Shown: in pieces, positions 8,130 through 26,068 of the stretch | How the letters are laid out: each line of letters begins with the position of its first letter | Position numbering within the stretch: the first letter of the stretch is position 1 | Notes under the pieces: generated by a model | Databases searched by the model: none | What the model was told of the DNA's origin: nothing | What the model saw: only the letters and a program-made list of their open reading frames with translations | Position numbers and translations under genes: made by a program | Source: Planctomycetia bacterium | GTDB taxonomy: Bacteria; Planctomycetota; Planctomycetia; Pirellulales; PALSA-1355 | Assembly (NCBI GenBank): GCA_031400775.1 | Contig: JANNQN010000293.1 | Span: forward strand, 1-54,788 | Direction of reading: 5' to 3' | Length of the DNA stretch: 54,788 bases

Positions 8130-10139
8130 ATGCTCACTTCGGCCGAAATCCTTGGTCCCACGGGTCGAATCGCCGCCCGGCTGGAGCACTACGAAACCCG
8201 CGTGCAGCAACTGGCCATGGCCGAGGCCGTGGCCGCCGCGATCCGCGAAAAGCGGCACCTGATCGCCGAGGCGGGCACGGGCATCGGCAAGAGCTTTGCC
8301 TACCTCGTGCCAGCAATCCTGGCCGTGGCCCAAACCAGCGAAGAAGGCGCCCCGGCGGAGCCGCCGCGGCGCGTGATCGTCTCCACGCATACGATCAGCT
8401 TGCAGGAGCAATTGATCCAGAAGGATCTGCCGCTGCTCAACAGCGTCATTCCGCTCGAATTTTCGGCCGTGCTCGTCAAAGGACGGCACAACTACCTGAG
8501 CCTCCGCCGCCTCCGCTTGGCATCGGCGCGGGCAGCGAGCTTGTTTCGCCGCGAGGAAGAATTCGACGAGCTGCGCAACCTGACCGATTGGTCGCGCGCC
8601 ACGGCCGACGGTTCGCTCGCCGACTTGGACTACCGTCCGCTGTCGAATGTCTGGGACGAGGCCGAAAGTGATAGCGTCAACTGCCTGGGCCGGAAGTGTC
8701 CGACGTATCAGGAATGCTTTTACTATCGAGCTCGGCGGCGCGTGCAGAACGCGCAGATCCTGGTGGTCAACCACGCGCTGTTCTTCAGCGACCTGGCGCT
8801 GCGCCGCGGCGGCGCGAGCATTCTTCCGGACTACGATATCGTCATTTTCGACGAAGCCCACATGCTCGAGTCGGTGGCCAGCGATCACCTGGGCGTAAAT
8901 CTTTCCTCGGGACAAATCGAATACGTTCTCAACAAGCTGTACAACGAACGAACCGGCCGTGGGCTGCTGGCGCACCACCGCCTGGCCGAGGCGCAGCGAG
9001 AGGTGGAAAAATGCCGCTACCGCGCCGACGAGTTCTTTGATTCGATCGGCCAGTGGTCGCAGCAGCGGGGAAAGACCACAGTGAGGGTCGAGCAGAGCGA
9101 GTTCGTCGACAATCCACTCAGCCCGGCGCTCGCGCGCCTGGCCCGCGTGCTCAAGGGGTGCGCGGCCGACGTGCCGGACGAGGAGCGCCCCGACTTCACT
9201 TCGGCGGCGGAACGGCTGCAGGCGATTTCCTCGTCGATCGAGGATTGGCGCTGCCAGCGCGAAGGGGACGCCGTGTATTGGATCGACTCCACGCGCAGCC
9301 GCCGCGGCCGCGAGCGCTGGCACCTGGCCGCCGCGCCGTTGGACGTGGGGCCGGCCTTGCGCGAGCAACTGTTCGACAAGATTTCGACGGTCGTTCTGAC
9401 TAGCGCCACACTGACGGTGGGACGCACAGGCTCGTTCGATTTCCTCAAGTCGCGCATCGGGCTGACGCAAGCCGACTGTCAACGCTGGGGAAGTCCGTTC
9501 GATTATTCCAAGCAGGCCGAGCTGGTGCTGGTCGACGGCATGCCCGACCCCACGACGGACGCGGCTGGCTACCTGCGCGCGGCCTGTGAGATGATTCGCC
9601 GTTATGTGGCCCGCAGCGATGGTCACGCGTTCGTGCTGTTTACCAGCTACGACATGATGCGCAGCGCCGCCGCCGAGTTGGCCCCCTGGCTAGTCGCGCA
9701 GAACCTGGCCGTCTATTGCCAATCCGACGGCATGCCGCGGACCCAGATGCTCGAGCGGTTTCGTGCTAACCCCCGTGCCGTGCTGTTGGGAACGGATAGT
9801 TTCTGGCAGGGCGTGGACGTGCCGGGCGATGCGCTACAGAATGTGATCATCACGAAGTTGCCGTTCAGCGTGCCCGACAGACCGCTGCTGGCGGCCCGCT
9901 TGGATGCGATTCGCGCGGCCGGCGGCAATCCGTTTGTCGATTATCAATTGCCCGAGGCCGTGCTCAAGCTCAAGCAGGGTTTCGGCCGGTTGATCCGCTC
10001 GCAACGGGATCATGGCATGGTCGTGATCTTGGATCCCCGCATTCGCAGCAAGCCCTACGGCCGGATGTTCTTGGAATCGCTACCCGATTGCCGGCGGGTG
10101 ATCGAGACGCTGGGCGCCGACGAAGTCGTGCGCGAGTAG
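8130..10139 (+). CDS. dinG: DinG/YoaA family ATP-dependent helicase
   Basis: Q motif, EAGTGIGKS, VVNHAL, DEAH, TSATL, FWQGVDVPG, KLPF, QGFGRLIR. Confidence 0.93.
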   Translation: MLTSAEILGPTGRIAARLEHYETRVQQLAMAEAVAAAIREKRHLIAEAGTGIGKSFAYLVPAILAVAQTSEEGAPAEPPRRVIVSTHTISLQEQLIQKDLPLLNSVIPLEFSAVLVKGRHNYLSLRRLRLASARAASLFRREEEFDELRNLTDWSRATADGSLADLDYRPLSNVWDEAESDSVNCLGRKCPTYQECFYYRARRRVQNAQILVVNHALFFSDLALRRGGASILPDYDIVIFDEAHMLESVASDHLGVNLSSGQIEYVLNKLYNERTGRGLLAHHRLAEAQREVEKCRYRADEFFDSIGQWSQQRGKTTVRVEQSEFVDNPLSPALARLARVLKGCAADVPDEERPDFTSAAERLQAISSSIEDWRCQREGDAVYWIDSTRSRRGRERWHLAAAPLDVGPALREQLFDKISTVVLTSATLTVGRTGSFDFLKSRIGLTQADCQRWGSPFDYSKQAELVLVDGMPDPTTDAAGYLRAACEMIRRYVARSDGHAFVLFTSYDMMRSAAAELAPWLVAQNLAVYCQSDGMPRTQMLERFRANPRAVLLGTDSFWQGVDVPGDALQNVIITKLPFSVPDRPLLAARLDAIRAAGGNPFVDYQLPEAVLKLKQGFGRLIRSQRDHGMVVILDPRIRSKPYGRMFLESLPDCRRVIETLGADEVVRE

Positions 10140-10156
10140 CGGTCGCATGTGACGCG

Positions 10157-10684
10157 TCAGATGGTATTCGATTCGACTCGCGGGTCGCTCAGCAGCGGAG
10201 GGCAGCGGTCCCGCGTCGCCAAGCCGGCGTAGTCGCCGAAGCGGGGATATCGCTCCCAGTTGTAAGTCACGTCGACAAGGCGGGATTCTTCACCAACGCG
10301 CTTCGAACCGATTCCGTCCGGATTCGACTTAAATCGCTCAATCCTGAGCTGGCCATCGGTCTTGAAATAAAGGACGGTCGTTCCATGTGGCGGATCGACG
10401 TTGTTTGGAAAGTCCGGCCGATGCGACATCGAGATGAAAAGTTCGTTGTGACGTTTTTCTTGAAATGAATACGTCAGGTAGGTGCGCAGCGCGGAGTCTA
10501 AGAACTCGACACATACCGAACGGAAGGCAGTAATCTCTAGGAAGCAATCCGGCCGCAAACGATCGCCAACCAACACAGTATAGAGTTTCCCCTTTTCGTG
10601 AGCCGTTCGAGCTTGGGCTTCTGTAAGTGAATCGTGGGGCCGATGATTGTGACGCGACCATTGCGTGCAATAGCTAATGTCCAT
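10157..10684 (-). CDS. Putative orphan toxin-immunity protein
   Basis: ATG at 10684 (MDISYCTQW...). The pattern AHEKGKLYTVLV...FLD..LR.YLTYSFQE...NWERYPRFGDY recalls proteins found in toxin-immunity clusters. It sits downstream of the CdiI gene in the same orientation and is more AT-rich than its neighbours. Confidence 0.6.
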   Translation of the reverse strand: MDISYCTQWSRHNHRPHDSLTEAQARTAHEKGKLYTVLVGDRLRPDCFLEITAFRSVCVEFLDSALRTYLTYSFQEKRHNELFISMSHRPDFPNNVDPPHGTTVLYFKTDGQLRIERFKSNPDGIGSKRVGEESRLVDVTYNWERYPRFGDYAGLATRDRCPPLLSDPRVESNTI

Positions 10685-10734
10685 GATGCTGTTTCGGCCG
10701 AAAAAACGGTTGGTCCAGTCGAGTATTCTCAATA

Positions 10735-11196
10735 TTACTCAAAGTGCGGCACGCAAAGCCGAATTGCTGTCTGAATTGCTTCGCCTATCTCAGTGACCGG
10801 TGCGTCCGCGCGCACGCGCTCGGTGACACGGGGCATCGGAACAAATCCGTTCTTCGGGCCGGCATTCTCCCATGGTTCGATGGTCAGCCATTCGCTGTCG
10901 TCGTCGGCTTGAACGCTGACAGAGCAAGCTCGTCGCGCGAACGCAGTCCAAGTCTTTACTCCGGCCAATTCCAACATGGACTTAAATCCGCACTCCAGTT
11001 CGGTCACAGTTGGCCGAGGTATTGCTGATCTCGACCCATTCAATGCTTCTACGACGGCGCTGCCGAGGGCATCGCACGAAGCATCCACTCCGAGGCTTAT
11101 TTCCGGCGGCGTGGCCACTCCAAGTCCGTCGATTGTTTTAGAAGTGGCATGCAAAAACCAACCGTTGGCTCGCCGATATATCGTTGCTCGCTTCAT
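10735..11196 (-). CDS. CdiI-like immunity protein (DUF1436/CdiI_2-like)
   Basis: Overlaps the toxin stop (4-nt ATGA-type coupling); DAS...LGSAVVEALNGSR and IGEAI..A patterns resemble CdiI partners of EC869-type DNases. Confidence 0.7.
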   Translation of the reverse strand: MKRATIYRRANGWFLHATSKTIDGLGVATPPEISLGVDASCDALGSAVVEALNGSRSAIPRPTVTELECGFKSMLELAGVKTWTAFARRACSVSVQADDDSEWLTIEPWENAGPKNGFVPMPRVTERVRADAPVTEIGEAIQTAIRLCVPHFE

Positions 11197-12674
11197 CGCT
11201 TCACCTCGATAACAACCACAGTCACTCCTCTCGATTGGCCATAGGATTTTAGCATAGCCAGAGCGCCGCGGTGCTGACCTGATGCACCGGGCGGAATCGC
11301 CAACTCCAGCGCGCGGCCCATTATCTCTCGTTCGGTGATCTCCGCACCTCCAAACTTTGCGCCTTTAAATGCGGCCACACTGTCAATGTACTCCTTGCAA
11401 ACCTTGTAGAAAGTTCCGGGCTTACGGTAACTAGGGGCTCGCAAATCGATGCTCTTTATGCTGGTTACGATTCCACCTATAAATTTGTCAATCACCGGAA
11501 AGGACCTGGGAAGAGTTTGGCCAAGCCGGTCGTGAATTATTTCACCGCGAACAACCGGTCCCAAGTCCCAAACGCCGCGATCTGCAATAGTTTCGGGCGG
11601 CGCCGGATTTGTGACTGTCGCATCTTGCTGTGCGGCCGCCGGCTTGGCAGGGACGGGCTTTTCACTTTCTGCGCTCGCCGCGCGGTTCTTCCGGCGCAGT
11701 AAAATGAACCCAATCACCGTCGCGGCTAGGCGCGCGCCACGGATTGTCTGTTCGTCCGCGCCAGCGGCGCGCAGGCCGGCCTCGACACCTTGTTCGGCGG
11801 CGCCCGCCGCCGCGGCCACGGCCAGCGCTTTGACGACGGCCCATTTGCCCCCTGTCTTGAAAGTAGTGACTAGAATTCCGCCGCCAACGACTATGCCTGC
11901 ACCGGTAAGCGCGAGATTCGTCCACTCCAAGCCGCCCACGACCCGGTTCATCGTCTTGTCGCGCCCGTGGGATCGCGCGTTCATTTGCATCAGTTGCCGC
12001 ATTGCCCGTTGGTCTTGCTGCTCGTCAGTAATCCTCGGCAGTCCGAAATGGGAGGGCGACAACAGCTTGGCCATACGGGCGTCTGCCTCACCCGACAGAT
12101 CGTCTCGCAGCCACGCGTTGCGCGCACTTTCCAGTGCGTCGTGGTAACGCCAGATCAGTGCCTCGCAAAGCTCGACTTCCGCTTCGGCGTCGACGGTTTC
12201 ATCGAGCTTCGCTGCGTCGAGCCGGCCGCCAAACTCGTCCAGCAATTGCTTGATTTCGTCCAGCGACCCCTGGGCATCGGCCAGCTTCTGGTTGAAAAAC
12301 TCCTCGCGCCGATTGGTCTCAACCGGCTTCGGCGGCGTCCGCCGCGAAATAGGAGGCTGTTCGGTCGCAGCCGGCGCGGGCGGCACGGCACGCGTTTCTG
12401 CGACAGGCAACAACTCGCAATAGCGGGCCCAGGCCTCAATCCAATCTTCGAACTCGCGAACGCTTTGGGGCGAAATCCGATAGCCGGCCGCCTCCTGCTC
12501 GGCGATAATCGCGTGCCACTGCTCGCGCCAATCGGCCGGCAGGCGGGCTGAAAATAGCACCGCGAAGAAGTCGTTGACCGCGTCGACCAGCGGTTGCAGT
12601 GCCGCCTCGAGCCGACGAAAAATGTCCTCGACCAAGAGTCGGCGGTTGTATTCAATCTGTTTGGCGAAATCCAT
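11193..12674 (-). CDS. Polymorphic toxin 1: novel N-terminal domain, helical/hydrophobic middle, CdiA-CT EC869-like PD-(D/E)xK DNase
   Basis: ATG at 12674 (MDFAKQI...). The C-terminus LPRSFPVIDKF..GIVTSIKSIDL...YIDSVAAF...I..RALELAIP...YGQSRGVTV parallels CdiA-CT of E. coli EC869 orphan 11 and Yersinia YPIII. Followed directly by a CdiI-like gene. Confidence 0.85.
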   Translation of the reverse strand: MDFAKQIEYNRRLLVEDIFRRLEAALQPLVDAVNDFFAVLFSARLPADWREQWHAIIAEQEAAGYRISPQSVREFEDWIEAWARYCELLPVAETRAVPPAPAATEQPPISRRTPPKPVETNRREEFFNQKLADAQGSLDEIKQLLDEFGGRLDAAKLDETVDAEAEVELCEALIWRYHDALESARNAWLRDDLSGEADARMAKLLSPSHFGLPRITDEQQDQRAMRQLMQMNARSHGRDKTMNRVVGGLEWTNLALTGAGIVVGGGILVTTFKTGGKWAVVKALAVAAAAGAAEQGVEAGLRAAGADEQTIRGARLAATVIGFILLRRKNRAASAESEKPVPAKPAAAQQDATVTNPAPPETIADRGVWDLGPVVRGEIIHDRLGQTLPRSFPVIDKFIGGIVTSIKSIDLRAPSYRKPGTFYKVCKEYIDSVAAFKGAKFGGAEITEREIMGRALELAIPPGASGQHRGALAMLKSYGQSRGVTVVVIEVKR

Positions 12675-12690
12675 TGCGAGAAACCCTGGG

Positions 12691-12767
12691 GTAGGCTGGA
12701 GACCGGAGGCTGGAGGCTGGGGGTCGGAAACGAAAAGCAAACTCACATCCCTCCGGCCTCCCGCCTC
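12691..12767. repeat. Intergenic GGAGGCT-type heptamer array with partial inverted copy
   Basis: gtaggct ggagacc ggaggct ggaggct gggggtc (12691-12725) and ctccggcctcccgcctc (12751-12767). Confidence 0.7.
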
Positions 12768-12774
12768 GCTTCAC

Positions 12775-13767
12775 CTACCGCCCTCCATAAATGGCTCGCT
12801 CTTCGCAGGCGCGCAGCCAAAAGGCGTCGTCAACTTGTTGCTTGGCGACCTCTGCGGCGGTTTTGGCGTCGCGCCGACCGGCCTCGACCAGAGCCTCGTC
12901 GAGAATGCGACGCGTTTCTTCGTCCGGAACGGACGCCAAGAGAATCGGGCGGGCCAGGGGTGGACCGCCGTCGGAGGTCGGCGATTGCAGTCTCGTCGCC
13001 CGCGGACTCAAGTCGGAGTCCGACGGGCGTTCCGGGACATCCGAGTCGCCTCTGCTATTGCTAAGCAATTCGATCGAGGGCCGCCAAGAGTCGTTGTCGG
13101 TTCTCAGCGGCCCGCGCTCAATCACAATTGGGTCGGTCGGCCGTCCGATGAGATCATCGATCACGCCATGATGCGGGGAGTTGAGATTCGGCACCCGATC
13201 AAATGCGCCGATATCCTTTATTGATCCGAAGTGTGGCTCAACCGGCTCCATCGCCATGAAGCCGCCGACGTCCAACGAGTTCGCGGCGCTGGTCGACTCT
13301 CGGCGATCTGCCGTCGCATCGTCGTTTTGGGAGTCGAGGTCCGCAGGCAGGTCCTGCCAAGTCGCGAACATGTCGCGCGCTACGCTCGCGGCAGGCACGT
13401 CGGCGATTGGGGGCGAGCGTAACGAGGCAGCAATCTCTTCGATCGGGGGAGGCGACAACGCGGCGTCCGACGCGAAAGAGTCGGTACCTGCCGGCATGTT
13501 GTCGATAGTGCCGTCCGAAGAGCGTCGTTCCGCGCTCGCATCTGGGATGGCATCGGGCGTCGCTTGTGCGCCGACATCCAACGAGCCGAACAACTCCGCA
13601 GGATCGAGCGCGTCGCTCGTCGTATCGGCATCGGTAACCTGGTCATCAGTTACGGCCTCAGTCGGTGGCTCCGGCCGTTTTTTGCCTGCTGGCTGTTCGG
13701 CCGGTTGCCGAATTAGCTCGGGCTCAAGTGCCGATTCGTCGGCGGTGCGAGGTCGTTTCGGATCCAT
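12775..13767 (-). CDS. Acidic, probably disordered protein with a helical C-terminal domain; first gene of toxin operon 1
   Basis: ATG at 13767 with AGGAG SD; rich in D/E/P/S/A; ends with RPILLASVPDEETRRILDEAL...FWLRACEERAIYGGR. Confidence 0.75.
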   Translation of the reverse strand: MDPKRPRTADESALEPELIRQPAEQPAGKKRPEPPTEAVTDDQVTDADTTSDALDPAELFGSLDVGAQATPDAIPDASAERRSSDGTIDNMPAGTDSFASDAALSPPPIEEIAASLRSPPIADVPAASVARDMFATWQDLPADLDSQNDDATADRRESTSAANSLDVGGFMAMEPVEPHFGSIKDIGAFDRVPNLNSPHHGVIDDLIGRPTDPIVIERGPLRTDNDSWRPSIELLSNSRGDSDVPERPSDSDLSPRATRLQSPTSDGGPPLARPILLASVPDEETRRILDEALVEAGRRDAKTAAEVAKQQVDDAFWLRACEERAIYGGR

Positions 13768-13819
13768 GGCGGACTTGCTCCTGCGGTTTGATGGCAAACA
13801 ACGTTCGATGACATGCAAC

Positions 13820-13876
13820 AAAAAAAGGCCCGTCGCTCGAAAGCGCGTTCGAATGCGCTCTCAAGCGACGGGCCTT
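13820..13876 (-). terminator. Intrinsic terminator in the leader of toxin operon 1 (attenuator)
   Basis: Minus strand aaggcccgtcgcttgagagcgc-loop-gcgctttcgagcgacgggcc followed by a U7 run, ending 52 nt before the ATG at 13767. Confidence 0.85.
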
Positions 13877-14029
13877 CTGGATACCTGCCTGTTGTCGGCA
13901 AGCCCCATGCAGTACCCGCGGTACCAATGCTATTTCGTGACGATCCGCGATCGATTGATCGCAGATCACTCCACGAACGGAAGCCTACCAGATCACGCGA
14001 CGACTGTCAGCGGCCGGAATTAGGCCACT
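13820..14029 (-). promoter_or_regulatory. Conserved leader copy A (promoter plus structured 5' UTR)
   Basis: CTGACA (14010-14005), N17, TGg-TAGGCT (13987-13982); homologous to 16329..16529. Confidence 0.75.
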
Positions 14030-14129
14030 TTCGAGCGGACGAGCCGCCCGCCGCGGCCGTGCCGTTACCGCATGTTTTTCTTGCCGATGTTGATGTCCGA
14101 AAATGGCCAGACAGAGTCCGCCAAAGCGG

Positions 14130-14141
14130 TAGAATCTGGTT
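14130..14141 (+). promoter_or_regulatory. Possible -10 box of a leaderless ada-alkA transcript
   Basis: TAGAAT at 14130-14135 lies 6 nt before the ATG at 14142; no SD sequence. Confidence 0.45.
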
Positions 14142-15611
14142 ATGGATTCGCATCACCAAAGTTGTTACCGGGCCCTCGTCGCACGCGACGCGCGCTTTGA
14201 CGGTTTGTTCTTCGTGGGCGTGACCACGACGCGAATATATTGCCGCCCCATTTGTCCGGCGCGCACACCCGGCAGTAAGAACTGCCGCTTCTTCCCCGTC
14301 GCGGCGGCGGCCGAGCAGGCGGGTTTCCGTCCATGCCTGCGGTGTCGTCCGGAGCTGGCGCCCGGCAACTCATCCGTCGATGCGGTGGGTCGCGTGGCGC
14401 GGATGGCGGCGCTGCGGATCCAGGCGGGGGCGCTCAACAATGGCGGCGACGTGGAAGAGTTGGCCAGCGAATTCGGCTTGTGCTCGCGGCAGTTGCGACG
14501 AGTCATGCGGCAGGAGTTGGGTGTTTCGCCGGTGCAGCTCGCGCAGACGCACCGGCTGCTGTTGGCCAAGCAACTCTTGACCGAGACCCATTTGCCGATC
14601 GTCCAGGTGGCGCTGGCCAGCGGATTCGAGAGCGTGCGACGTTTCAACTCGCTGTTCAAGTCGCACTACCGGCTGGCGCCGCGTCGTTTTCGCCGCTCGT
14701 CGCGGCCGGCCATGGACGGCGAGCCCCTGCGACTTCATTTGGCCTTTCGTCCTCCCCTGGCCTGGCCTGAGTTGCTGCGTTTCCTGGCGGATCGCGCGGT
14801 GGTCGGCGTCGAGCGCGTCTCGGCTGTGGGATACTCGCGCACCGTGGCCATCGGTTCCGCACGGGGTTGGCTCAGCGTGACGCCCGGCAAGATCTCCAAC
14901 ACGCTTTGCGTCGAGCTCGCACCTTCGCTCAGCGGCGTGCTGGCGCCGCTGCTGGCGCGACTCCGGCACCTGTTCGATCTGGGGGCGCGGCCCGCTGCCA
15001 TCGCCGGGCACCTTTCCGCCGACCCCAGGATCGGAAAGTCCGTCAAACGTTTTCCGGGCCTGCGCGTGCCGGGAGCCTTCGACGGCTTTGATCTGGCCTG
15101 CCGGGCGATCCTCGGCCAGCGGATATCGGTCCGCGCGGCCACGACACTGGCCGGGCGACTGGCGGCCCGGTTCGGCGAGACCATCGAGACGCCCGATCCC
15201 GCCTTGACCCGACTGGCGCCCGATCCCGAGAGGGTCGCAACCGCGGCGGTCGATGACCTGGTGGATCTGGGCATCGCACGCGCGGTCGCGGTTGCGATCG
15301 GGGCGCTGGCCCGGGCGGTGTCCGATGGGCGGCTGCGAATCGAGCCGGGGGCGCAAGTTGAATCCACGATCGATCAGCTTTGCGAATTGCCGGGAGTCGG
15401 CCCCTGGACTGCACACTACATTGCCATGCGCGGCCTGGGCTGGCCCGATGCTTTTCCGGATGGTGATCTGGGGCTGCTTCGAGGGCTGGGCGAATCGTCG
15501 GCCGCCCGTGTGCGGAATGCGGCAGAGGCCTGGCGACCGTGGCGCGCTTATGCGGTGATGCATGTCTGGAACCAATTGGCGAATTCTTCAAGCACGAGGA
15601 ACCGATCATGA
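14142..15611 (+). CDS. alkA: Ada-AlkA fusion (Ada Zn-binding, AraC HTH, AlkA N-terminal, HhH DNA-3-methyladenine glycosylase)
   Basis: RDARFDG.FF.GV.TT.IYCRPICPAR...GFRPCLRCRPE; ASGFESVRRFN; LPGVGPWTA.Y; DAFPDGD; WRPWRAYA. Confidence 0.95.
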   Translation: MDSHHQSCYRALVARDARFDGLFFVGVTTTRIYCRPICPARTPGSKNCRFFPVAAAAEQAGFRPCLRCRPELAPGNSSVDAVGRVARMAALRIQAGALNNGGDVEELASEFGLCSRQLRRVMRQELGVSPVQLAQTHRLLLAKQLLTETHLPIVQVALASGFESVRRFNSLFKSHYRLAPRRFRRSSRPAMDGEPLRLHLAFRPPLAWPELLRFLADRAVVGVERVSAVGYSRTVAIGSARGWLSVTPGKISNTLCVELAPSLSGVLAPLLARLRHLFDLGARPAAIAGHLSADPRIGKSVKRFPGLRVPGAFDGFDLACRAILGQRISVRAATTLAGRLAARFGETIETPDPALTRLAPDPERVATAAVDDLVDLGIARAVAVAIGALARAVSDGRLRIEPGAQVESTIDQLCELPGVGPWTAHYIAMRGLGWPDAFPDGDLGLLRGLGESSAARVRNAAEAWRPWRAYAVMHVWNQLANSSSTRNRS

Positions 15612-16150
15612 ACCTTGCAGAAGTGAACTATACGGTGATTGAGAGTCCGATTGGCCGCCTGCTTGCAGTCGGTGATGACGCCGCGCTGTGCGGACTCTAC
15701 ATGGAGTCGCACAAGCGCGGTCCGGCGCCGAACGACCGCTGGCGGCGCGACGATGACTCGCTGCGATTCGCGGCCGAGCAAATCGAAGCTTACTTCGCGG
15801 GCCAGCTCGAGCAGTTCGACTTGCCCTGTGTGACCGCGGGCACGCCCTTCCAGCGCCGCGTATGGACGGCGCTTGGCGAAATTGGCTTCGGCGAAACGAT
15901 TACGTACGCACGATTGGCCCAGCGCGTGGGTGCGCCACGGGCGGCCCGCGCGGTCGGCGCCGCGGTGGGGCGCAATCCGATCTCGATTATCGTGCCCTGC
16001 CATCGTGCCGTGGGGTCGAACGGAAGCCTGACTGGTTTTGCTGGCGGCCTGCCGCGCAAGCGATGGCTGCTCGAACATGAACAAGCGGTGCTGGGAGAAC
16101 GGTCCGGCTGCACGGCGGGGCCAGGTCTGTGCCAGGCTGCTGGCAAGTGA
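15608..16150 (+). CDS. ogt: Methylated-DNA--protein-cysteine methyltransferase
   Basis: ATG at 15608 overlaps the alkA stop; GTPFQ..VW, ARAVG.A...NP, active site VPCHR. Confidence 0.95.
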   Translation: MNLAEVNYTVIESPIGRLLAVGDDAALCGLYMESHKRGPAPNDRWRRDDDSLRFAAEQIEAYFAGQLEQFDLPCVTAGTPFQRRVWTALGEIGFGETITYARLAQRVGAPRAARAVGAAVGRNPISIIVPCHRAVGSNGSLTGFAGGLPRKRWLLEHEQAVLGERSGCTAGPGLCQAAGK

Positions 16151-16328
16151 TTCGCGTCCTCTGCGTGCGGTGTCGATTTGACGGGCCAAAACGTGGCCGC
16201 CAGTGGGTCAGGTTCGTTTCGCCGCTGGCGGCGAATTCGCCCCGGGATTGGAGCCCGTCCGAGACTTGCTGGGTGGACGCACATGTTGGCCTAGCGCTTC
16301 CGAACACAAGTCGCTGGACTCTATAGCG

Positions 16329-16529
16329 AGTGGCCTAGTTTCAGGCGCAGAAATCGTCGCGCGTCTTTGATAGACTTCCGGCATTGAGTTGTGAACACAA
16401 GTTCATCGACTCATCCGTTAATTGCCTGTCTGCGGGTATTGTGCGGGGCCTGCCACTAGAGCGGGTATCCGAATGGGCCCGTCGCTCTTGAGCGCATTTT
16501 CAATGCGTCCGAGTGCGGCGGGCTTTTTT
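16329..16529 (+). promoter_or_regulatory. Conserved leader copy B (promoter plus structured 5' UTR)
   Basis: CAGAAA (16348-16353), N17, TGa-TAGACT (16371-16376); shares blocks AGTGGCCTA, TCGTCGCG, CTTCCG, GCGGGTAYTG, GGGGCYTGCC, GGTATCC, GCCCGTCGCT and GAGCGCATT with copy A. Confidence 0.75.
16477..16529 (+). terminator. Intrinsic terminator in the leader of toxin locus 2 (attenuator)
   Basis: gcccgtcgc...gcggcgggc stem (one G-U pair) with an inner gcgcatt/aatgcgt helix, then U6; ends 61 nt before the ATG at 16591. Confidence 0.8.
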
Positions 16530-16590
16530 ATTGGCCGTGCATGCAGCCGGCGAGTTGGCCGCGGTCCCGACTCTCACTTTGGATAGGACC

Positions 16591-18151
16591 ATGGACTTCT
16601 CCAAACAGATAGCGGAAGACCAGCGATTCCTGCTGGCGGATTTACACCGTCGCATCGAAGCGGCGCTCCAGCCGTTTGCGAATGACCTCGATGACTTCTT
16701 GGGAGTCCTCTTTCAAGCGCGCCTGCCCGCGGATTGGCGTCAACAGTGGCACAATTTTGTGGCCGAGGCAGCGACCAAGGGCTTTTTCGTTAAGGGGAAG
16801 AGCGTTGTTGAGTTGGAGGAATGGATCGAGGCTTGGGCCCGGTTTTGCGGATTGCTCCCGCTCGGTTCTGAATTCGGACAGCCGGAGAATCCATCGGGAA
16901 TTCGGACTCTTGTGGGATCGTCCGAGGACCGCGAAGCTTCGACATTACCTGGCACCTACCAATCGGCCGATCGCGGCGCGCCGATCCTGCTAGCGAGTGT
17001 CCGACCAGGCAAGCAGGGCACGACTCCGTCCAAACCGGCCCCACCAAAACCTGCCGCTCAAACTCCGCCAAAGCCACCTGCTCCAGCGCCACCCGAACCG
17101 CCCGGGCCAACAGCGAAGCTTAATGATGACGGTGTCGAGGTGGCCGGACCCGGTCCCGACACAACCATGTGGTATCGCGTCAAGGTTCGCAAGGCGCTCG
17201 AGATCTTGGATCCTCGCATTGCCCGCTGGTGGCACGCCAACAGCGTCAGCGGACTGGTTCGTTCGCGCGGCGGCCGCGTTTTGGCAGCATGCGCATTACA
17301 GCCGGATGGATGAGGGTAATCGGCCCGTCATCGTTGTTGACGAGGATTACACGGCCGGCCAAACGGCGCAAGCCATCATTGCGGAAGTCACGGGCGGTTG
17401 GTTCGCAGATTCGATTGGCGCGTTTTACAAGAAGTATCGCTTTTCGCAGACGGGCGACTTCGAGGATTTTCGCAAATGGCAGTTGGGCGCCGTCAAGGAA
17501 GCGGCGCAACTGGCCAGCCAGTTAGCCGAGCTGTACGTCAATGCCATCGCCACGCTCACGCCGGCCGGCGACCTGGTGGTCTTCACCACCGACGCGATGG
17601 AACGCGGCCTGAAGCTCGACCAGCTCGTAAACCTGCTGCCGCTGTTGGCTCATTTGCCGATTGGGGCAATTATCGTCAAGTTCGGCAAGCGGCAAGTAAA
17701 GCTCACGAAGCAACTGGCTCGCGACTTCGAAAAGCTGAGCGTCGAACAGCGCACAATCCTTTTGGAAAAAGCAGCGGCCGCCAAGACCGACGAAGAAGCC
17801 GTCGTTATAATCAAGCGCGGCATTGAGGCCGCCACAGAAACCGAACACCACATTGCTACCAACAAGAACTGGCTATCGACGCTACGCGGTGGACCTTGGA
17901 GTCCGAGGTTTCAGAAGTTCTTTAAGAAAGCCGGGCTCACACTTGAGGACGCTGCGAATAAGGTTCGCATTCCAGCGCATCGCGGGCCCCACCCCGAGGC
18001 GTATCATCAAGAGATATACGATCGACTTGAACTGGCAACGGGCAGCAAGAGTGGAGCAGCATACAGAAACGCGCTTTTGGACGAGCTCCGCAAAATCGGA
18101 CGTGAGGCTAGTACACAGGGAACGAAACTAAACCGCTTGCTTACTGAGTAA
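16591..18151 (+). pseudogene. Polymorphic toxin 2: novel N-terminal domain, Pro-rich linker, AHH (HNH/EndoVII-fold) nuclease; apparent +1 frameshift near 17269
   Basis: ATG at 16591 (MDFSKQI...) homologous to toxin 1. That frame ends at 17313, while the +1 frame continues ...AAAFWQH... to EHHIATNK...GPW...KAGL.L...N...HRGPHPEAYH. Could be a real pseudogene or a sequencing error. Confidence 0.8.
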
Positions 18152-18171
18152 GAATTCGCCAGGACCGCAAT

Positions 18172-18759
18172 ATGTTTCAGACTTCGGCCAAACCCAAGCA
18201 ATTGTTTCGAATCCTTGCTGACCATATCCAATACCCCGACCAATGGTTCTTGGACGACCCATTGACTGCCGACGGCTGTGATATCGATCCTCGTGAATTC
18301 ACCGCTGGAAGTCCCTATTGCGGCCCAACACCGGTTGTGGCATCCATCGGGAATCCGGGCAGGGAACTGGCGTTTAATCTCGGCGCCTTTGACATGCCAG
18401 TCGTGTCGTCGGCAGTGGCGGACATCATCTGGCGGATTGCCCCCCTCGACGTTCAATGTTTCTCGATCGACATTCCCGGTGCGGTCGGCTCCTATCAAAT
18501 CCTCAACGCGGTCTGTTCGCTCGATTGTCTGGATGAAGAGCGATCCGAGTTCACGCGATTCCAAGTCGGTGACCATCGATCCGATCTGATCGGCCAGTAT
18601 CATTCGATCCCAACGATTCGTATCGATCCATCCCGCACACTCGATCACCACGTGTTCAGAATACTCAACTGGCACGTTGCGGTACTCGTCTCCGACACCA
18701 TTAAAGACGCATTGGCTGACATTCCACACCTCGGTATCGTCTTCAAGCAGGCCTCGTGA
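18172..18759 (+). CDS. Imm11/DUF1629-family immunity protein, cognate to the AHH toxin
   Basis: PVVS..VA......AP.DVQ, ILN...LDCLDE, IRIDP, VFR, LVS..IK.AL...G..F motifs; 20 nt after the toxin stop. Confidence 0.8.
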   Translation: MFQTSAKPKQLFRILADHIQYPDQWFLDDPLTADGCDIDPREFTAGSPYCGPTPVVASIGNPGRELAFNLGAFDMPVVSSAVADIIWRIAPLDVQCFSIDIPGAVGSYQILNAVCSLDCLDEERSEFTRFQVGDHRSDLIGQYHSIPTIRIDPSRTLDHHVFRILNWHVAVLVSDTIKDALADIPHLGIVFKQAS

Positions 18760-18802
18760 CGCCAGGTCAGCTTACTGGGCAAGAATTCGTCAGGACCGCG
18801 CT

Positions 18803-19388
18803 ATGTTTCAGAGTTCAGGCAATCCAATACAACTGTACCAATTGCTTCTTGACCACATCCAGTACCCCGATCAATGGTTCTTGGACGACCCGCTGACTGC
18901 CGACGGCCGAGAGATTGATCCTCGCGAGGTCGTCGATGGAGTTTCCTATGACGGTCCGGCGCCAGCCGTCGCATCCATCGGGAACGCGGGTAGGGAACTG
19001 GCGTTTAATCTTGGCGCCTTTGACATGCCAGTCGTGTCGTCAGCAGTGGCAGACATCATCTGGCGGATTGCCCCCCTTGACGTTCAATGTTTTGCCATCG
19101 ACATTCCTGGCTCGGTGGGCTCCTACTCAAATCCTGAATGCAGTTTGCTCGCTCGATTGTCTGGATGAAGAGCGATCCGAGTTTACACGCTGGCAAGAAG
19201 GAGATCACCGATCCGACTTGATCGGCCAATATCGTATGATCTCGACGATTCGCATCGACCCACTCCGTACTCACGATCATCACGTCTTCAGAATCCGCAA
19301 TTTTACCATCGCGCTATTGGTCTCGGAAACTGTAAAAGACGCGCTCGTTTACATCCCAAACCTGGGGGTCTTGTTCGATCCCGTGTAG
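18803..19388 (+). pseudogene. Second Imm11/DUF1629 immunity copy with a +1 insertion at about 19126
   Basis: Copy 1 reads tcc tat caa atc, copy 2 reads tcc tac t caa atc; protein similarity continues in the +1 frame to the TAG at 19388. Confidence 0.85.
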
Positions 19389-19458
19389 TAACGCCAGGTA
19401 TGCGTTCCCAGGGGCTTTTCGCCGCTTGAGCGGCTCGAAACCTTGGTAACCGATTCGC

Positions 19459-20286
19459 TCAGGTGCTCGCCGCTTCCGGCACGAGGACCTCGCCGCGGCT
19501 GGTGGCGATCATGTCGCCGTGATAGGTGCGATAGGCGGAGTGTACGAGCGACTCGTCGAAGGCGAAGTCCAGCCGGCGCAGCTCGCGAAAGATCAATTGC
19601 AGAAACAGCGGTTTGTCACAACTGCCAGCGCGAAATGTCGGTAGCAATTTGGGCACAGAGCTGGCAAGCAGACCCAGCGTGCCGCGTCGCATACCCGCTC
19701 CGCTGCGGATGCCCGCGGGACCAAAGACCAGGATCGTGCCGGCGATCATGTTGATGCCGGCGAAGTCGCCGCAGGCGCCGCCCACGGCCAAGAGTCCGCG
19801 GCGCATCGTGTGGCCGACCTCGTTGCCCACGTCGCCGCCAACCAGGATCGTACCGCCGGTCATGCCGCGAGGGCTGCCGCGATAGGCCGCGCCGATCAGG
19901 TGGCCCGCGTTGCCGCGGACGTGGATCAGTCCGCCGTGCATTTCGCCCCCGACCCAATCGCCAGCGTCGCCCGACACGTGCAGTTGGCCGCCGGTCATTT
20001 CGCTGCCCACGTGGCGGCCGGCCGTGCCCTCGACGCGAATCTCGCCATCGGCCATATGCGCGCCGATCCAGTGCACGCCCGACAGATCCCCCTCGAACAC
20101 CATGCCTCCATCGGCGGCGCTGCCGGAGACGGTAAAGAAATCGGCCAGCGGCCGCTTCTCATTGCCGTGAAAGATCTCGAATCGCTCGATCGCGTCCAGC
20201 GGCACGTCGCGGACCGTGTTTGGCACGAGCCCTTCGACTTCCACCGGCACGCTGGTCTGGGCTTTATAGAGGAGTCGGAGCGGCAT
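19459..20286 (-). CDS. fwdC: Formylmethanofuran dehydrogenase / Fhc subunit C
   Basis: Repeated G..M.GG.I.V.G beta-helix motifs, GAAYRGS..GMTGG, Y.GD..  G.GE. Confidence 0.93.
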   Translation of the reverse strand: MPLRLLYKAQTSVPVEVEGLVPNTVRDVPLDAIERFEIFHGNEKRPLADFFTVSGSAADGGMVFEGDLSGVHWIGAHMADGEIRVEGTAGRHVGSEMTGGQLHVSGDAGDWVGGEMHGGLIHVRGNAGHLIGAAYRGSPRGMTGGTILVGGDVGNEVGHTMRRGLLAVGGACGDFAGINMIAGTILVFGPAGIRSGAGMRRGTLGLLASSVPKLLPTFRAGSCDKPLFLQLIFRELRRLDFAFDESLVHSAYRTYHGDMIATSRGEVLVPEAAST

Positions 20287-20381
20287 GGTTGCGAGTATAA
20301 TTCACGGCCGTCGCAAAGCCCAGGGACGGTGATTCGCGGCGCCGTGTAACCACGCGAAAATACTCGAACGAGCGCAATGGC

Positions 20382-21026
20382 ATGAATCGCGGCGGGATCA
20401 TCTTGTGCGGTGGCCGCAGCAGTCGAATGGGACTGCCCAAGTGGTCGCTGCCGTTCGGTCCCGAGACAATGCTCGAGCGGATCGTGCGACTGCTGGGCGA
20501 GGTCTGTCCGACGCTCGTGGTCGTGGCCGCGCCCGGGCAGGCGCTGTCCAAGCTGGCCGTCGGAGTGATCGTGGCCCGCGATCGTCGCGAGGGCCGCGGG
20601 CCGCTGGAAGCACTTTCGGCCGGATTGTCGGCGTTGCCCGAGGATGTCGAGGCGGCGTATGTCACGAGTTGCGACGTGCCGCTGTTGGCGCCGGCCTTTG
20701 TGCGGCGCATGTTCGAACTGCTCGAGGACCACGCGGCGGCCGTGCCAATCAGCGACGGATATCTGCACCCGCTGTCGGCCGTCTATCGTCGCAGCCTGCT
20801 GGCGGTGATCGACGAGCTCTTGGCCAGCGATCGATTGCGGCCTTCGTTGCTCTTTGATCTGGTGTCGACGCGGCGCGTGGCCCCGCGCGAACTGGTCGAG
20901 GTGGATCCCGAGCTTGGCACGCTCAAGAATCTCAACCATCCGGCCGACTACCTGGCGGCGCTTGCGCAGTCGGGCTTCACGGCGCCGGCCGACGTGCTGG
21001 CGAACTTAAGCGGCCCGGGCCAGTAG
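20382..21026 (+). CDS. mobA: Molybdenum cofactor guanylyltransferase
   Basis: ILCGGRSSRMG.PK, GPLEAL, CDVP, HPL.AVY, NLN.P.D. Confidence 0.92.
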   Translation: MNRGGIILCGGRSSRMGLPKWSLPFGPETMLERIVRLLGEVCPTLVVVAAPGQALSKLAVGVIVARDRREGRGPLEALSAGLSALPEDVEAAYVTSCDVPLLAPAFVRRMFELLEDHAAAVPISDGYLHPLSAVYRRSLLAVIDELLASDRLRPSLLFDLVSTRRVAPRELVEVDPELGTLKNLNHPADYLAALAQSGFTAPADVLANLSGPGQ

Positions 21027-22688
21027 CTATTCGCAGGCAATCGTTTCGTGCTCGTGCATGTAGTCTTCGGTGACCGGATAGTTGCGAAAGCGGATCGAGT
21101 AGTACTTCTCGAACCAGGCGGCGATATCGGCCTCGACGCCCCGGTCGTAGTCGGGCGAGACGTGCAGCGTCTTGCCGTGTACCGGGTCGCGAACTTCGCC
21201 CAGCTCGACGATCATCTGCCCGGCCTTGATCACGTAGCGCGGCATCTCGAACATCGCCTCCTTGTTCTCGTGCGGCGTGTAGATGGTGATATCGGCGTCG
21301 GCGCCCGGCCCCAGGTGCCCCTTGTTCTTCAGACCCAGAATCTTGGCTGGGCCGGAGCGGGTGATGATGCAAATCTCGTACAGCGAATACTCGCGATCCA
21401 GATCGGCCAGAGAAGATCGTTCGCGCACTAGCGGGTTGACGGTCTTGAGCACGTCGGCCCGCCAGGTGCGGTCCATCAACAGGCGAATGATTTGCGGATA
21501 GGCCATGAACGATCCGCCGTTGGGATGGTCGGTGCTCATCACCACGCGCCACGGATCCTGCACCAACAGATACCATTCCAGTCCGATGGCCCATTGCAGC
21601 GAATGGATCAAGTTTTTGTTCTTGTATTCGATGGGGGCCATGCCGCAGCCAGCCTCCATCTCGGTCTCGCTGGAGAACCATTTCGATTTGAAGATGTTGC
21701 TCAGGTAATAGCCCAGCGGACTGTCACCTGTCATGCTCGTCGTGCTGCCGAACATCACCTGGCCGACGTCGCAGGTGATGTTCGGATGGGCATTGACGTA
21801 TTCGGCCAGTTGGGCGGTCTTGGAGTTGAACGTGTTCTCGTCTCCGCCGCCTCCGCCATAGCTGTGGAACTGGATGTGGGTCATGTGGCCGCCGTGCCCT
21901 TCGAGCGCCCGCATGGTTTCCAGGGTCGTCGTCCAATTGCCGGGCAGACCCAGGTTATTGGCGTGAATGTGGACGCGATGCGGCAGCTTCAGCTCCTCGG
22001 CAGCCCGGGCGATAGCACCGATGATCTGCCGCGGGGTGACGTTGAAATATTCCACGAGCGAATCGAGTCCGCTGACGTTGCCCCCCTGCTGCTGCTTCCA
22101 GACCTCGACACCGCCCGGATTGACGATCTTGGGCGCATAGCCCTTGGCGGCCGAGAGTAGCCAGCCCAAAAACCCCTTCAGTCGCTCGGGCTCCTGATCC
22201 TGAATGGCCTGCATGATGTAATGGTTGTTGCCGACCAGCACGTAGAAGCCCTTGTCGATGCACGGCGTGTCGCCGAACTCTTCGTGTACGTGTCGCGCGG
22301 CAAGCGGCGGAATGGCCGCGTCGAAGGCCGTGGTGTAGCCCATCCCCGCGTACTTATAACCCGTGGCAAATGTGCTGGGCACGCTGCCCATCGTGCCGCT
22401 ATGAGTGGTGGCGGTGCGCATCACCGGCGGAGCCAGCCGCTTTTCCTCCGGCCGCATGCGGCGGGCCATGTTCACCTTCGGCCCGGCGATATGACAGTGC
22501 ATGTCGATGCCGCCGGGCATCACGACCAGGCCCGCGGCGTCCAGGATTTTGTCGGGGCGGACTTGTGGATCGCTCGGCGCGTCGACGATCTTTCCGTCGC
22601 GTATCCAGATGTCGCGCACCAGCCCATCGATGCCGTGGAGCGGATCGTAGACGGTTCCGCCCGAGATTTTGAAAAATGAACTGGACAT
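21027..22688 (-). CDS. fwdA: Formylmethanofuran dehydrogenase / Fhc subunit A (amidohydrolase)
   Basis: PGGIDMHCHIAG, KIVNPGG, HIHANNLG, HIQFHSYG, STDHPNGG. Confidence 0.96.
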   Translation of the reverse strand: MSSSFFKISGGTVYDPLHGIDGLVRDIWIRDGKIVDAPSDPQVRPDKILDAAGLVVMPGGIDMHCHIAGPKVNMARRMRPEEKRLAPPVMRTATTHSGTMGSVPSTFATGYKYAGMGYTTAFDAAIPPLAARHVHEEFGDTPCIDKGFYVLVGNNHYIMQAIQDQEPERLKGFLGWLLSAAKGYAPKIVNPGGVEVWKQQQGGNVSGLDSLVEYFNVTPRQIIGAIARAAEELKLPHRVHIHANNLGLPGNWTTTLETMRALEGHGGHMTHIQFHSYGGGGGDENTFNSKTAQLAEYVNAHPNITCDVGQVMFGSTTSMTGDSPLGYYLSNIFKSKWFSSETEMEAGCGMAPIEYKNKNLIHSLQWAIGLEWYLLVQDPWRVVMSTDHPNGGSFMAYPQIIRLLMDRTWRADVLKTVNPLVRERSSLADLDREYSLYEICIITRSGPAKILGLKNKGHLGPGADADITIYTPHENKEAMFEMPRYVIKAGQMIVELGEVRDPVHGKTLHVSPDYDRGVEADIAAWFEKYYSIRFRNYPVTEDYMHEHETIACE

Positions 22689-22708
22689 GATTCCTTCGAA
22701 ATTGCGCC

Positions 22709-24049: not shown

Positions 24050-24281
24050 GATTGGATCCGGGAGAACAGCAGTTTTTCAGGCGGGCAGTGCTGGCAGACC
24101 CACTATTGTCGCACCGGCGGTGTCTCAATGCCAGTCCACAGTAACCCATGTGTAATTTCCCTCATTGCCGCTGTGTTGCCGCGGCGCGACAGCTATAATC
24201 CCGCGCTGGGATGACCGGAGCTTACCGGGTTCGCGCGATTCGGCCGCCCGGGGTGGCGGCTTATCGAAATGAGGGCATGGC

Positions 24282-24647
24282 ATGTCGGACGAATCCTGGG
24301 CCACTTTGGTTCGGCACGAGGGAGAAGTCCCGCGGGAGCAGAGCACCTGCGGCTGGCGCGACCGGCTGATCAGCCATGAGGACGACGGCCGCGTGGCGGC
24401 CTGGGCGCACGCGGTCGACATCGACGGCGCGCGAGAACACTACCACCGCCGTAGCGCCGAGTTGTACTACGTGCTCGACGGCGAGGGCCTCGTGACCTTG
24501 GACGGCAAGGCCCACGCGGTTCGCAAGGGATCGATCGTGCACATTCCCCCCGGCGTGATCCACGGCGCCAAGGGTCGCATGCGGGTGCTCGTGGTCGGCG
24601 TGCCCGATATCGCCGACGATGACCTGTATTTCGCCGACGAGGAGTGA
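24282..24647 (+). CDS. Cupin domain protein
   Basis: HYH...ELYYVLDGEG...IPPGVIH. Confidence 0.88.
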   Translation: MSDESWATLVRHEGEVPREQSTCGWRDRLISHEDDGRVAAWAHAVDIDGAREHYHRRSAELYYVLDGEGLVTLDGKAHAVRKGSIVHIPPGVIHGAKGRMRVLVVGVPDIADDDLYFADEE

Positions 24648-24723
24648 CGCGCCGCGCGTAGTACGCTCGCGCAGCAATCGTCGCGGCTCGGCAATCGCCC
24701 ACGATCGCTAGCGGCTTAACCCG

Positions 24724-25674: not shown

Positions 25675-26068
25675 CGCCGGCATGCCTTGTCAGATGCGAA
25701 TTGTGGATCGGACTATCTTCACCAATCGGCAAATGTGGAACCCCACTTGAGATCCCCGGCATGCTAGCTGGCGGCGCCATCGGGGCTTGCAGCCGGGGGG
25801 ATCCGGATTGTGCGTATTGAGATTGTGGCACGCAAGATGCCGGGGCGACCCATCAAAAACCGCGGCAGTTGCAACCGCCGTTGGCACTTTTTTCGCTCTT
25901 GCGCGGGTGCCCTAAACCGGTTTTTCTCGATGCAACGATTAGTCCGTTTGGCCAACGATACGCCGGTCAGATGTAGGTGGACGGTCGGCTAGTCGCGTGC
26001 TATTTTTTTCGTGGCGACCTCCCTAAAGTGGGGAGGCGCAGACTCGTCGTTTCGTCGGCCATAGGTCC

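Follow-up and report, generated by a model that had tools for sequence, protein, structure and literature searches.

A 90-residue helical N-terminal domain shared by putative polymorphic nuclease toxins of one planctomycete family

What is the task of a protein segment that two genes on opposite strands share at their very start and nowhere else? The question is raised by contig JANNQN010000293.1 of assembly GCA_031400775.1, from a Planctomycetia bacterium, which was analysed over its whole 54,788 nucleotides (the window). Translation of positions 12674-12405 (minus strand) and 16591-16860 (plus strand) yields homologous 90-residue N-termini, termed here the N-domain, of two proteins encoded by what we call toxin gene 1 and toxin gene 2. 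A preliminary description, made from the letters of the sequence, had counted 51 identities in 90 positions by hand, had singled out the strings EAALQP, ARLPADWRxQWH and WIEAWARxCxLLP, and had taken the segment for an unrecognised targeting or loading domain. When the two full-length proteins were compared by BLASTP, one ungapped block was obtained with 53/103 identities and 71/103 positives (E=1e-36 in this single comparison), and 51 of the 53 identities fall within residues 1-90; the hand count is thus exact, and the strings are present in both translations. This likeness is far beyond chance. Past LLP only 2 of 13 aligned residues agree, and as nothing else aligns (the next best segment has E=1.2), the abrupt end of the similarity noted at that point is real. 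The assembly to which the window belongs (5.74 Mb, 462 contigs, 96.7% complete) holds five copies of the N-domain, with E values from 1.5e-57 to 8.3e-32: two in the window, one on contig C205 and, on contig C124, a further two, of which one is truncated by the contig end. The reading that we consider best is that the N-domain would be the defining module of a lineage-restricted family of polymorphic nuclease toxins, presumably antibacterial, in a single planctomycete family.

No described family accounts for the domain in the libraries searched (Pfam, NCBIfam, PADLOC, PHROGs and the sequences of the PDB). Against Pfam at E<=10, the two N-domains of the window returned sub-threshold noise only (bDLD3 0.027, VbhA 0.085, DUF6635 0.2), and at E<=1 nothing recurrent was found for the N-domain across 127 family proteins among the first 25 of 78 families listed. 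NCBIfam, PADLOC and PHROGs gave no match for the toxins, the best E value of the N-domain profile against PDB sequences was 0.14, and no usable match was obtained in the ESM Atlas. An AlphaFold (AF2) model of the N-domain, computed from an 11-sequence alignment, has a mean predicted local distance difference test score (pLDDT) of 88.7 and a predicted template modelling score (pTM) of 0.67; this confident model consists of three helices (residues 3-40, 49-62 and 69-85). Foldseek comparison of this model with the PDB retrieved nothing at E<=0.001 (best 2.9). The Foldseek-independent wide search VIA had its best Z, 6.6, for ribosomal protein S20 (root-mean-square deviation 4.8-5.1 over 77-80 residues), a value within the calibrated noise for helical bundles that neither supports nor excludes any named family. 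The full-length AF2 model of the window protein P0003 (nine sequences; mean pLDDT 47, pTM 0.30) served for secondary structure only. In the open-access literature, searched outside supplementary tables (those of Zhang et al., 2012, and of the papers on T6SS markers; T6SS, type VI secretion system), no paper was found on the N-domain or on a planctomycete-specific toxin N-terminal domain. The novelty lies at the level of the sequence family.

To which proteins does the domain belong? A word-indexed search with residues 1-95 returned 18 proteins, all metagenomic and carrying different C-terminal Pfam toxin domains. The profile of alignment A1, made of 11 N-domains, was run with HMMER against 1.84 billion representative proteins and matched 127 of them at E<=1e-3, 69 at E<=1e-10 and 18 at E<=1e-30; W49, R50 and G64 are nearly invariant among 127 aligned proteins. 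Among the 139 family proteins stored (median size 328 residues, maximum 635), the domain starts at most 2 residues from the protein start in 121, at 3-35 residues in 16, most of which likely have mis-called starts, and beyond 35 residues in 2. We scanned 127 proteins with Pfam, namely 126 of the 127 profile hits and P0003 from the window, P0066 (52 aa) being excluded. At E<=1e-3 this gave 21 nuclease toxin matches: WHH 7, EC869-like 4, Colicin-DNase 4 (8 at E<=1), LHH 3, AHH 1, Tox-REase-9 1 and Tox-GHH 1. Five single weak matches to unrelated families make up the rest of the output at this threshold, and the other proteins had no match. Every recognisable C-terminus of the family is therefore a nuclease toxin domain, and the N-domain does not occur mainly in non-toxin proteins. 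Through Pro-rich linkers it is joined to at least four different downstream architectures, and hydrophobic pre-toxin segments are found in some members. Start positions, architectures and nuclease C-termini together bear out the earlier view of an autonomous N-terminal module of toxins. In one subfamily (proteins P0005, P0008 and P0016) body and toxin come in the opposite of the usual order: the WHH nuclease lies mid-protein, and the roughly 230 residues after it contain a hydrophobic segment as well as a charged helical tail.

Module boundaries can be followed within toxin gene 1, which is laid out as N-domain, Pro-rich linker, helical region, hydrophobic Gly/Ala-rich region, second linker and nuclease. 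The last of these, at residues 386-488, matches PF21111 with E=2.2e-12 and 47.7 bits against a Pfam gathering cut-off of 27. Nine orthologues align as conserved until about residue 340 and carry variable toxins thereafter. In DNA the paralogue on contig C205 is 91% identical to gene 1 over a stretch that begins 59 nt upstream of the start codon and extends to about codon 318; beyond that point it has a different C-terminus. The hydrophobic segment, in which the nine orthologues share invariant Gly and Ala columns, reaches its Kyte-Doolittle peak at residues 251-273; it may have a membrane role.

Exchanged C-termini and different bodies on one N-domain place these proteins among the polymorphic toxin systems, as catalogued in the available part of Zhang et al. 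(2012; PMC3482391). A constant N-terminus is combined with variable C-termini, seven nuclease families occurring on one N-domain, and an immunity gene lies directly downstream (Imm11 after AHH toxins). By Pfam score the C-termini are members of the EC869-type CdiA-CT and of the AHH, WHH and LHH cassettes treated in that part of the catalogue. The modes of trafficking given there for such cassettes (type II, type V, type VI and type VII secretion systems, PVC and TcdB/TcaC) are without a domain of this kind, and none of those N-terminal modules was detected here: a known trafficking domain was absent from Pfam matches of the 127 proteins and from NCBIfam matches.

The family is confined in its hosts. 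A pattern scan of a genome collection found eight loci, seven of them in metagenome-assembled genomes (MAGs) of uncultured Planctomycetaceae or Planctomycetia; the eighth (L017, in a Bacillota MAG) is a 27-residue match with E=9e-5 relative to the candidate stretches and was treated as chance. With the N-domain profile, hits were obtained in 21 of the 32 other species representatives of the window's own family (f1), in none of 268 genomes from 29 other families of the same order and in none of a further 400 drawn from across the phylum; the searches of order and phylum, both of them on samples, scored 17 and 12 first-look candidates per genome. Within family f1 the domain is thus carried by 22/33 genomes, 10/15 genera and 14/16 high-quality genomes, in up to 6 copies per genome. 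In the genomes sampled it is restricted to one planctomycete family. The genes for DUF7133-HEAT-cytochrome c proteins and the formylmethanofuran-dehydrogenase-like genes found in the window and on C124 also fit a planctomycete.

Upstream of toxin gene 1 and on the same strand lies a gene for a protein of 330 aa, referred to as the partner, with no match in Pfam, NCBIfam, PADLOC or PHROGs. Its N-terminal 250 residues are acidic and rich in Pro, Ser and Thr (isoelectric point 4.16, 50 D+E against 21 K+R) and evidently disordered. They are followed by a C-terminal domain of about 80 residues (C-domain) with the consensus …SPTSDGGPPLARPIxLVSxP…DEAL…RDAKT…FWLRxCEERALYGGR. An index of 5.8 billion proteins contains 17 homologues, four of them on contigs equal in size to contigs with toxin hits (12,818; 59,886; 196,355 and 13,131 bases). 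With profile A5 of the C-domain we obtained 19 hits in 13 of the 33 family f1 genomes, 12 of which also carry the N-domain. For 15 of these hits an N-domain hit follows on the same strand after about 50-350 bp; of the other four, one lies at the edge of a contig and three are followed by no N-domain hit. All-against-all clustering of the open reading frames (ORFs) of 15 loci showed that only the toxin, the partner (10/15 loci) and immunity-like ORFs recur. Of the two partner copies in the genome of the window, which share 45% identity over 132 aa, the one in the window stands before an N-domain of subtype A and the one on C124 before an N-domain of subtype B.

The interaction test that had been proposed for this protein was carried out as a complex prediction with the A1 N-domain and partner residues 245-330. 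The complex scored 0.45, the best of three controls 0.01, a result classed as 'weak support'; at least 92% of the contacts are the same between runs, with a partner pLDDT of at least 66. Of 80 solved complexes 58 reach the pass mark of the procedure, as do 2 of 110 mismatched pairs, and passes at a score <=0.60 comprise only 7 of the 80 solved complexes together with both passing mismatches. Taking the gene linkage as prior, this weak pass makes it likely that the N-domain binds the partner C-domain, as modelled.

Some observations on partner and toxin stand by themselves. The conserved partner strand ...ARPILLASVP... has a counterpart, ...GAPILLASVRPG..., in the linker of toxin gene 2 (residues about 128-138, window about 16975-17005) and also in the C124 toxin, P0022 and P0023, that is, in subtype-B toxins only. 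A loose pattern for the P-I-L-L-A-S-V strand hits 4 of 140 toxins and 16 of 17 partners, over a background of 0.012 per 1,000 residues. As the three clear toxin hits belong to one subtype, they count as one evolutionary event, and the recurring strand could be a shared short recognition peptide. A public contig from run X3 (depth 12.1, side 37) joins position 12693 to 16589 on opposite strands and so connects the region just upstream of the gene 1 start with the start of the gene 2 N-domain; this single short contig suggests a strain in which a partner-A gene stands before a subtype-B toxin, with cassette exchange at the N-domain boundary. In genome G090 (G090:C1 about 302500-305700; locus L037, 8878-12000), the divergent N-domains of two tandem toxins (…RRDWRERF…YLEMWDRNVYGGPP…) are nearly identical and their C-termini differ; the two genes are separated by a small unrelated ORF, have no partner upstream and lie 1.1 kb from a sigma-54-type activator.

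What could such a domain do? Its position in the architecture suggests targeting or loading. A small, leaderless N-domain of three predicted helices is followed by a flexible Pro-rich linker and by interchangeable bodies ending in a DNase or HNH-type toxin, with immunity genes downstream. In one large subclade the N-domain would be bound by the conserved C-domain of the acidic upstream protein, which may be an adaptor, a chaperone or a co-exported protein, and the toxin would be passed on by the pair to a route of export or delivery. By analogy, the hydrophobic Gly-rich segments inside the toxins might then allow the nuclease to pass through the target membrane. To this proposal, namely that the N-domain is a docking module on the producer side that sends a leaderless nuclease toxin, with the partner where present, to a delivery route, we would give even chances.

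Several points weigh against it. The predicted fold is a generic three-helix bundle and offers no functional clue. No partner was detected upstream of 35 of the 50 N-domain hits, among them gene 2 of the window, the C124 edge copy, the C205 copy and the G090 tandem toxins, and the partner gene of genome G200 has no toxin at all after it. The class of weak passes into which the predicted complex falls is more often wrong than right where a good prior is wanting. Beside the toxins no secretion gene recurs in the 15 loci, and the distribution of the N-domain follows none of the markers of the machines tested. That the toxins are exported from the cell, and the direction in which they act, are matters that we infer. 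The order and phylum searches, finally, could have missed weak relatives of the N-domain outside family f1.

The producer-side docking module has to be weighed against other explanations, and these differ in how they deal with the same evidence. A bacteriocin of the colicin or S-pyocin kind would be released without any machine, its N-domain binding a lineage-specific envelope receptor or import component of the target. Nuclease colicins and S-type pyocins are likewise leaderless and modular, combine a C-terminal DNase (Colicin-DNase/HNH) with an immunity gene downstream, and target close relatives; the helical N-terminal and central parts of the toxins agree with this, the restriction to one family fits a weapon against close kin acting through a lineage-specific receptor, the hydrophobic Gly-rich segments could serve membrane translocation, and the 15 loci have no linked secretion machinery. 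The N-terminal parts of colicins, however, are disordered or receptor-binding and act in the target, whereas here a compact three-helix bundle is accompanied by a conserved partner gene on the producer side. Neither that cytoplasmic-looking partner nor its weak predicted contact would be expected of a bacteriocin. Among the ORFs of at least 60 aa in the 15 loci there is no recurrent gene for lysis or release, and the extreme conservation of the N-domain beside a swapped middle would be out of the ordinary for receptor-binding parts, as these commonly diversify. We consider a bacteriocin unlikely.

As the genome of the window has a T6SS, T6SS cargo is the obvious first guess. The N-domain would then load the toxins onto VgrG, PAAR or Hcp in the manner of MIX, RIX, PIX and WHIX, and the partner would be a T6SS adaptor. 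The only cluster of this system (contig C32, about 9400-27000; loci L006, L009 and L019-L021) encodes TssC, ClpV, VgrG and PAAR, with a DUF6931 protein between VgrG and PAAR and a 239-aa protein without Pfam hit; after these comes a gene whose product exceeds 1,000 aa and has a Ser/Thr kinase domain at its N-terminus. It speaks for this guess that no effector could be recognised in the cluster or beside its spike genes. The toxins are orphan, leaderless and of typical cargo-effector size, the four family genomes with TssC all carry the N-domain, and in the accessible parts of the sources the MIX, RIX, PIX and WHIX markers are also N-terminal and lineage-biased and define orphan polymorphic effector classes, some with secreted adaptors.

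The counts across the family speak against this guess. TssC is present in 4/33 genomes and the N-domain in 22/33 (2/16 and 14/16 among those of high quality), so that 18 of the 22 N-domain-positive genomes have no TssC, including G041, G060, G090, G152, G141, G076 and G104, which are 95-100% complete. A T6SS cargo marker should be encoded almost only in genomes with the system; more than 98% of the genomes encoding WHIX homologues have a T6SS, according to the available part of PMC12135965. Nor was any toxin found beside T6SS genes in the 15 loci. WHIX, as defined in the same part of PMC12135965, is a bipartite motif (residues 31-126 and 271-476) with WHxxxH over about 300 aa, whereas the present domain has 90 aa and in P0003 reads W53-H54-A-I-I-A-E with no second His; MIX, RIX and PIX were absent from the listed Pfam hits. 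Cargo of a T6SS is, in our judgement, decidedly improbable.

A substrate of a system of the T7SS type (T7SS, type VII secretion system) is a further candidate. The N-domain would be a divergent LXG- or WXG-type domain, and the partner would serve as Lap or WXG partner for an EssC-type ATPase. The logic is that of the LXG toxins of T7SSb, for which small helical partners encoded upstream are required for export in the parts of bioRxiv 10.1101/2022.07.06.499029 and 10.1101/2023.07.21.550046 at hand; LXG with Lap1/Lap2 in Bacillota shares a leaderless helical N-domain, swappable toxins, an upstream partner and a downstream immunity gene in those same parts. Solo WXG domains with a YueA-like ATPase are mentioned for planctomycetes in the available part of PMC3482391. 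A second long frame of the FtsK/SpoIIIE family, with two matched stretches, occurs in 16 of the 33 family genomes (about 1,320-1,455 aa where intact; for example G183:C1:1925320-1926534, G104:C319:19242-20459 and G200:C131:18496-19710), and is possibly a T7SS-like YueA/EssC ATPase. The orphan partner of G200 lies 13 kb from such a gene, a lead that was dropped, the intervening genes having no operon link.

Of the 22 N-domain-positive genomes 7 have this long frame, of the 11 N-domain-negative ones 9, and it is thus commoner where the N-domain is lacking. The genome of the window has no EssC-like ATPase, and such an ATPase shows no co-distribution with the N-domain; that genome has a single FtsK hit, to an ordinary FtsK, and no WXG100. 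The LXG and WXG100 models matched neither of the two N-domains at E<=10, nor any of the 127 proteins at E<=1 among the first 25 of 78 families listed. The LXG domain has about 200 aa, more than twice the 90 of the N-domain, and the partner, with 330 aa mostly disordered and acidic, is unlike the small helical Lap proteins; the hosts are Planctomycetes and not Bacillota. We give little credence to a substrate of this kind.

Equally little speaks for a role inside the producing cell, in which N-domain and partner would regulate or sequester the toxin in a module resembling toxin-antitoxin or abortive-infection systems, the partner being a nucleic-acid mimic or inhibitor. No export route was found, the first 250 residues of the partner are strongly acidic and the recognisable toxins are all nucleases, which would suit such a mimic. 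But PADLOC has no match for toxin, partner or immunity candidates, separate immunity genes already neutralise, and swapped C-termini, tandem toxin/immunity arrays and Imm11 are the interbacterial layout of the available part of PMC3482391. Export by the flagellar type III apparatus is hardly credible: of the export markers tested, FlhA (FHIPEP) alone occurs family-wide (32/33 genomes, one locus each, which therefore have a flagellar apparatus), and type III substrates have N-terminal signals and acidic chaperones encoded next door, to which N-domain and partner would correspond, but FlhA is found in nearly all genomes, the 11 N-domain-negative ones included, and so does not discriminate by N-domain, no second, injectisome-type FlhA/SctV locus was found in the 33 genomes, a folded three-helix bundle is unlike a disordered signal, and no flagellar genes lie near the toxins in the 15 loci.

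For the producer-side docking module this leaves the question of the route. VirB4 was found in 0/33 family f1 genomes and Phage_sheath_1 in 0/33 over the cut-off; absence in MAGs is never proof, and the pattern across the complete genomes is consistent. The route is probably none of T6SS, type IV secretion system (T4SS), extracellular contractile system or T7SS-like system. Of the earlier proposal of a targeting or loading domain for a secretion apparatus, particle or chaperone, the architecture and the weak predicted binding of the partner speak for one part; no apparatus or particle is tied to the domain. In its logic the pair most resembles LXG/Lap and the T6SS markers, but it departs from both where they could be tested. 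Whether N-domain and partner C-domain form the recognition pair of a family-specific, undescribed route, one without T6SS, T4SS, contractile injection or T7SS-like ATPase, we would answer with a doubtful perhaps.

The remaining features of the locus are collected in Table 1. Toxin gene 2 had been described as a protein of 240 aa beginning at 16591. Its N-domain part stands, and the rest had to be corrected: the frame changes near 17268-17270, and the downstream half continues in the frame of ORF 16997-18151. By tblastn, an intact 518-aa paralogue (G000:C124:14919-16475) is 79% identical in both frames, the first covering its residues 1-224 and the next its residues 225-518. Relative to this paralogue the window carries one extra base in a GC-rich run at the switch. 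Base 17269 is omitted in public contigs of runs from another study (X3, depth 26.1 of 58.4 in three contigs; X4, 14.4 of 14.4 in one contig) and kept in run X1 (0 of 7.53 without the base); X1 is possibly the source sample itself, and the C124 paralogue could have contributed short contigs at 17269. The PF14412 match falls at residues 278-370 of ORF 16997-18151 (E=7.8e-17, 61.7 bits against a gathering cut-off of 22.3), in a gene that is frame-disrupted in the assembly.

The AHH toxins of the window and of C124 have Imm11 (PF07791) directly downstream, on C124 in two copies; a pairing of Imm11 with AHH is tabulated in the part of PMC3482391 consulted. The two Imm11 proteins of C124 match positions 18803-19385 in frames 2 and 3 with 70-97% identity (tblastn). 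The frame changes of gene 2 and of this second Imm11 gene reflect either a cassette decaying in the strain or an assembly error. Upstream of gene 2, about 330 bp (16259-16590) are 87% identical to G000:C124:387-719, which precedes the C124 edge copy; neither of these two copies has a partner gene upstream, and the shared stretch may be a conserved promoter or leader of partner-less copies. Next to the edge copy, G000:C124:846-4482 (L007) holds two adjacent Hsp70-family genes (641 and 594 aa), and after them come two genes of about 1,000 aa for DUF7133-HEAT-cytochrome c proteins. In the window, 19462-24049 (minus strand) shows GXGXG-motif, amidohydrolase and molybdopterin-like ORFs in a row, a cluster which we take to resemble the formylmethanofuran dehydrogenase / formyltransferase-hydrolase of the tetrahydromethanopterin (H4MPT) C1 pathway.

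The two ORFs downstream of gene 1 had no match in Pfam, NCBIfam, PADLOC or PHROGs; their position makes them candidate immunity genes. A related MAG (locus L010) shows synteny on the DinG side, and both toxin loci are embedded among DNA-repair genes, namely a DinG-like helicase, an Ada/AlkA fusion and an Ogt methyltransferase (window 8130-10139, 14142-15611 and 15539-16150). The metatranscriptome run X17 has only short contigs of 90-95% likeness, including 12033-12254 and 12514-12669 over gene 1, the second within its N-domain; as these contigs come from a relative and DNA carry-over is possible, no conclusion on expression was drawn, and bins without cover are not evidence of silence.

Table 1. 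Positions of the toxin, partner and immunity features in the window
Feature	Position	Strand	Basis
Toxin gene 1, 493 aa	11193..12674	-	Translation, Pfam, alignment of 9 orthologues
N-domain of toxin gene 1, subtype A	12405..12674	-	Translation, BLASTP, AF2 model, profile matches
Hydrophobic Gly/Ala-rich segment of gene 1, residues about 250-335	11670..11927	-	Hydropathy scan
CDI_toxin_EC869_like (PF21111) DNase, restriction-endonuclease fold, C-terminus of gene 1	11211..11519	-	Pfam
Candidate immunity gene 1, 153 aa, downstream of toxin gene 1	10735..11196	-	Position; homologous ORFs in syntenic L010
Candidate immunity or orphan-cassette gene 2, 191 aa	10157..10732	-	Homologous ORFs in L008 and L010
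Partner gene, 330 aa	12775..13767	-	Composition, alignments, 17 homologues
Partner C-terminal domain, residues 250-330 (...SPTSDGGPPLARPILLASVP...FWLRACEERAIYGGR)	12778..13020	-	Alignments A3, A5; family search; complex prediction
Toxin gene 2, frame-disrupted near 17268-17270 in the assembly	16591..18151	+	Two-frame tblastn against the paralogue
N-domain of toxin gene 2, subtype B	16591..16860	+	Translation, BLASTP, profile matches
AHH nuclease domain (PF14412) of gene 2	17828..18106	+	Pfam
Imm11 immunity gene (PF07791)	18172..18759	+	E=2.1e-7, 30.9 bits against a cut-off of 22.1
Second Imm11-like gene, split over two frames in the assembly	18803..19385	+	tblastn

The N-domain thus represents a new family for polymorphic toxins and brings with it a new partner family, with a delivery route that is possibly new as well. 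N-terminal markers such as LXG, MIX, RIX and WHIX are the main handle for finding effectors and for understanding the choice of cargo, and the N-domain is a clean, hitherto unannotated toxin marker in the Planctomycetes, a phylum whose interbacterial weapons have hardly been studied. With most of their C-termini unrecognised, the 127 representatives are a source of new toxin and immunity domains. If, on the other hand, the toxins were colicin-like after all, they would be the first bacteriocin-type nucleases described for the phylum, as far as the literature was searched. Should the inference of a producer-side docking module hold true, the pair of N-domain and partner would be a bait with which to find the delivery machine.

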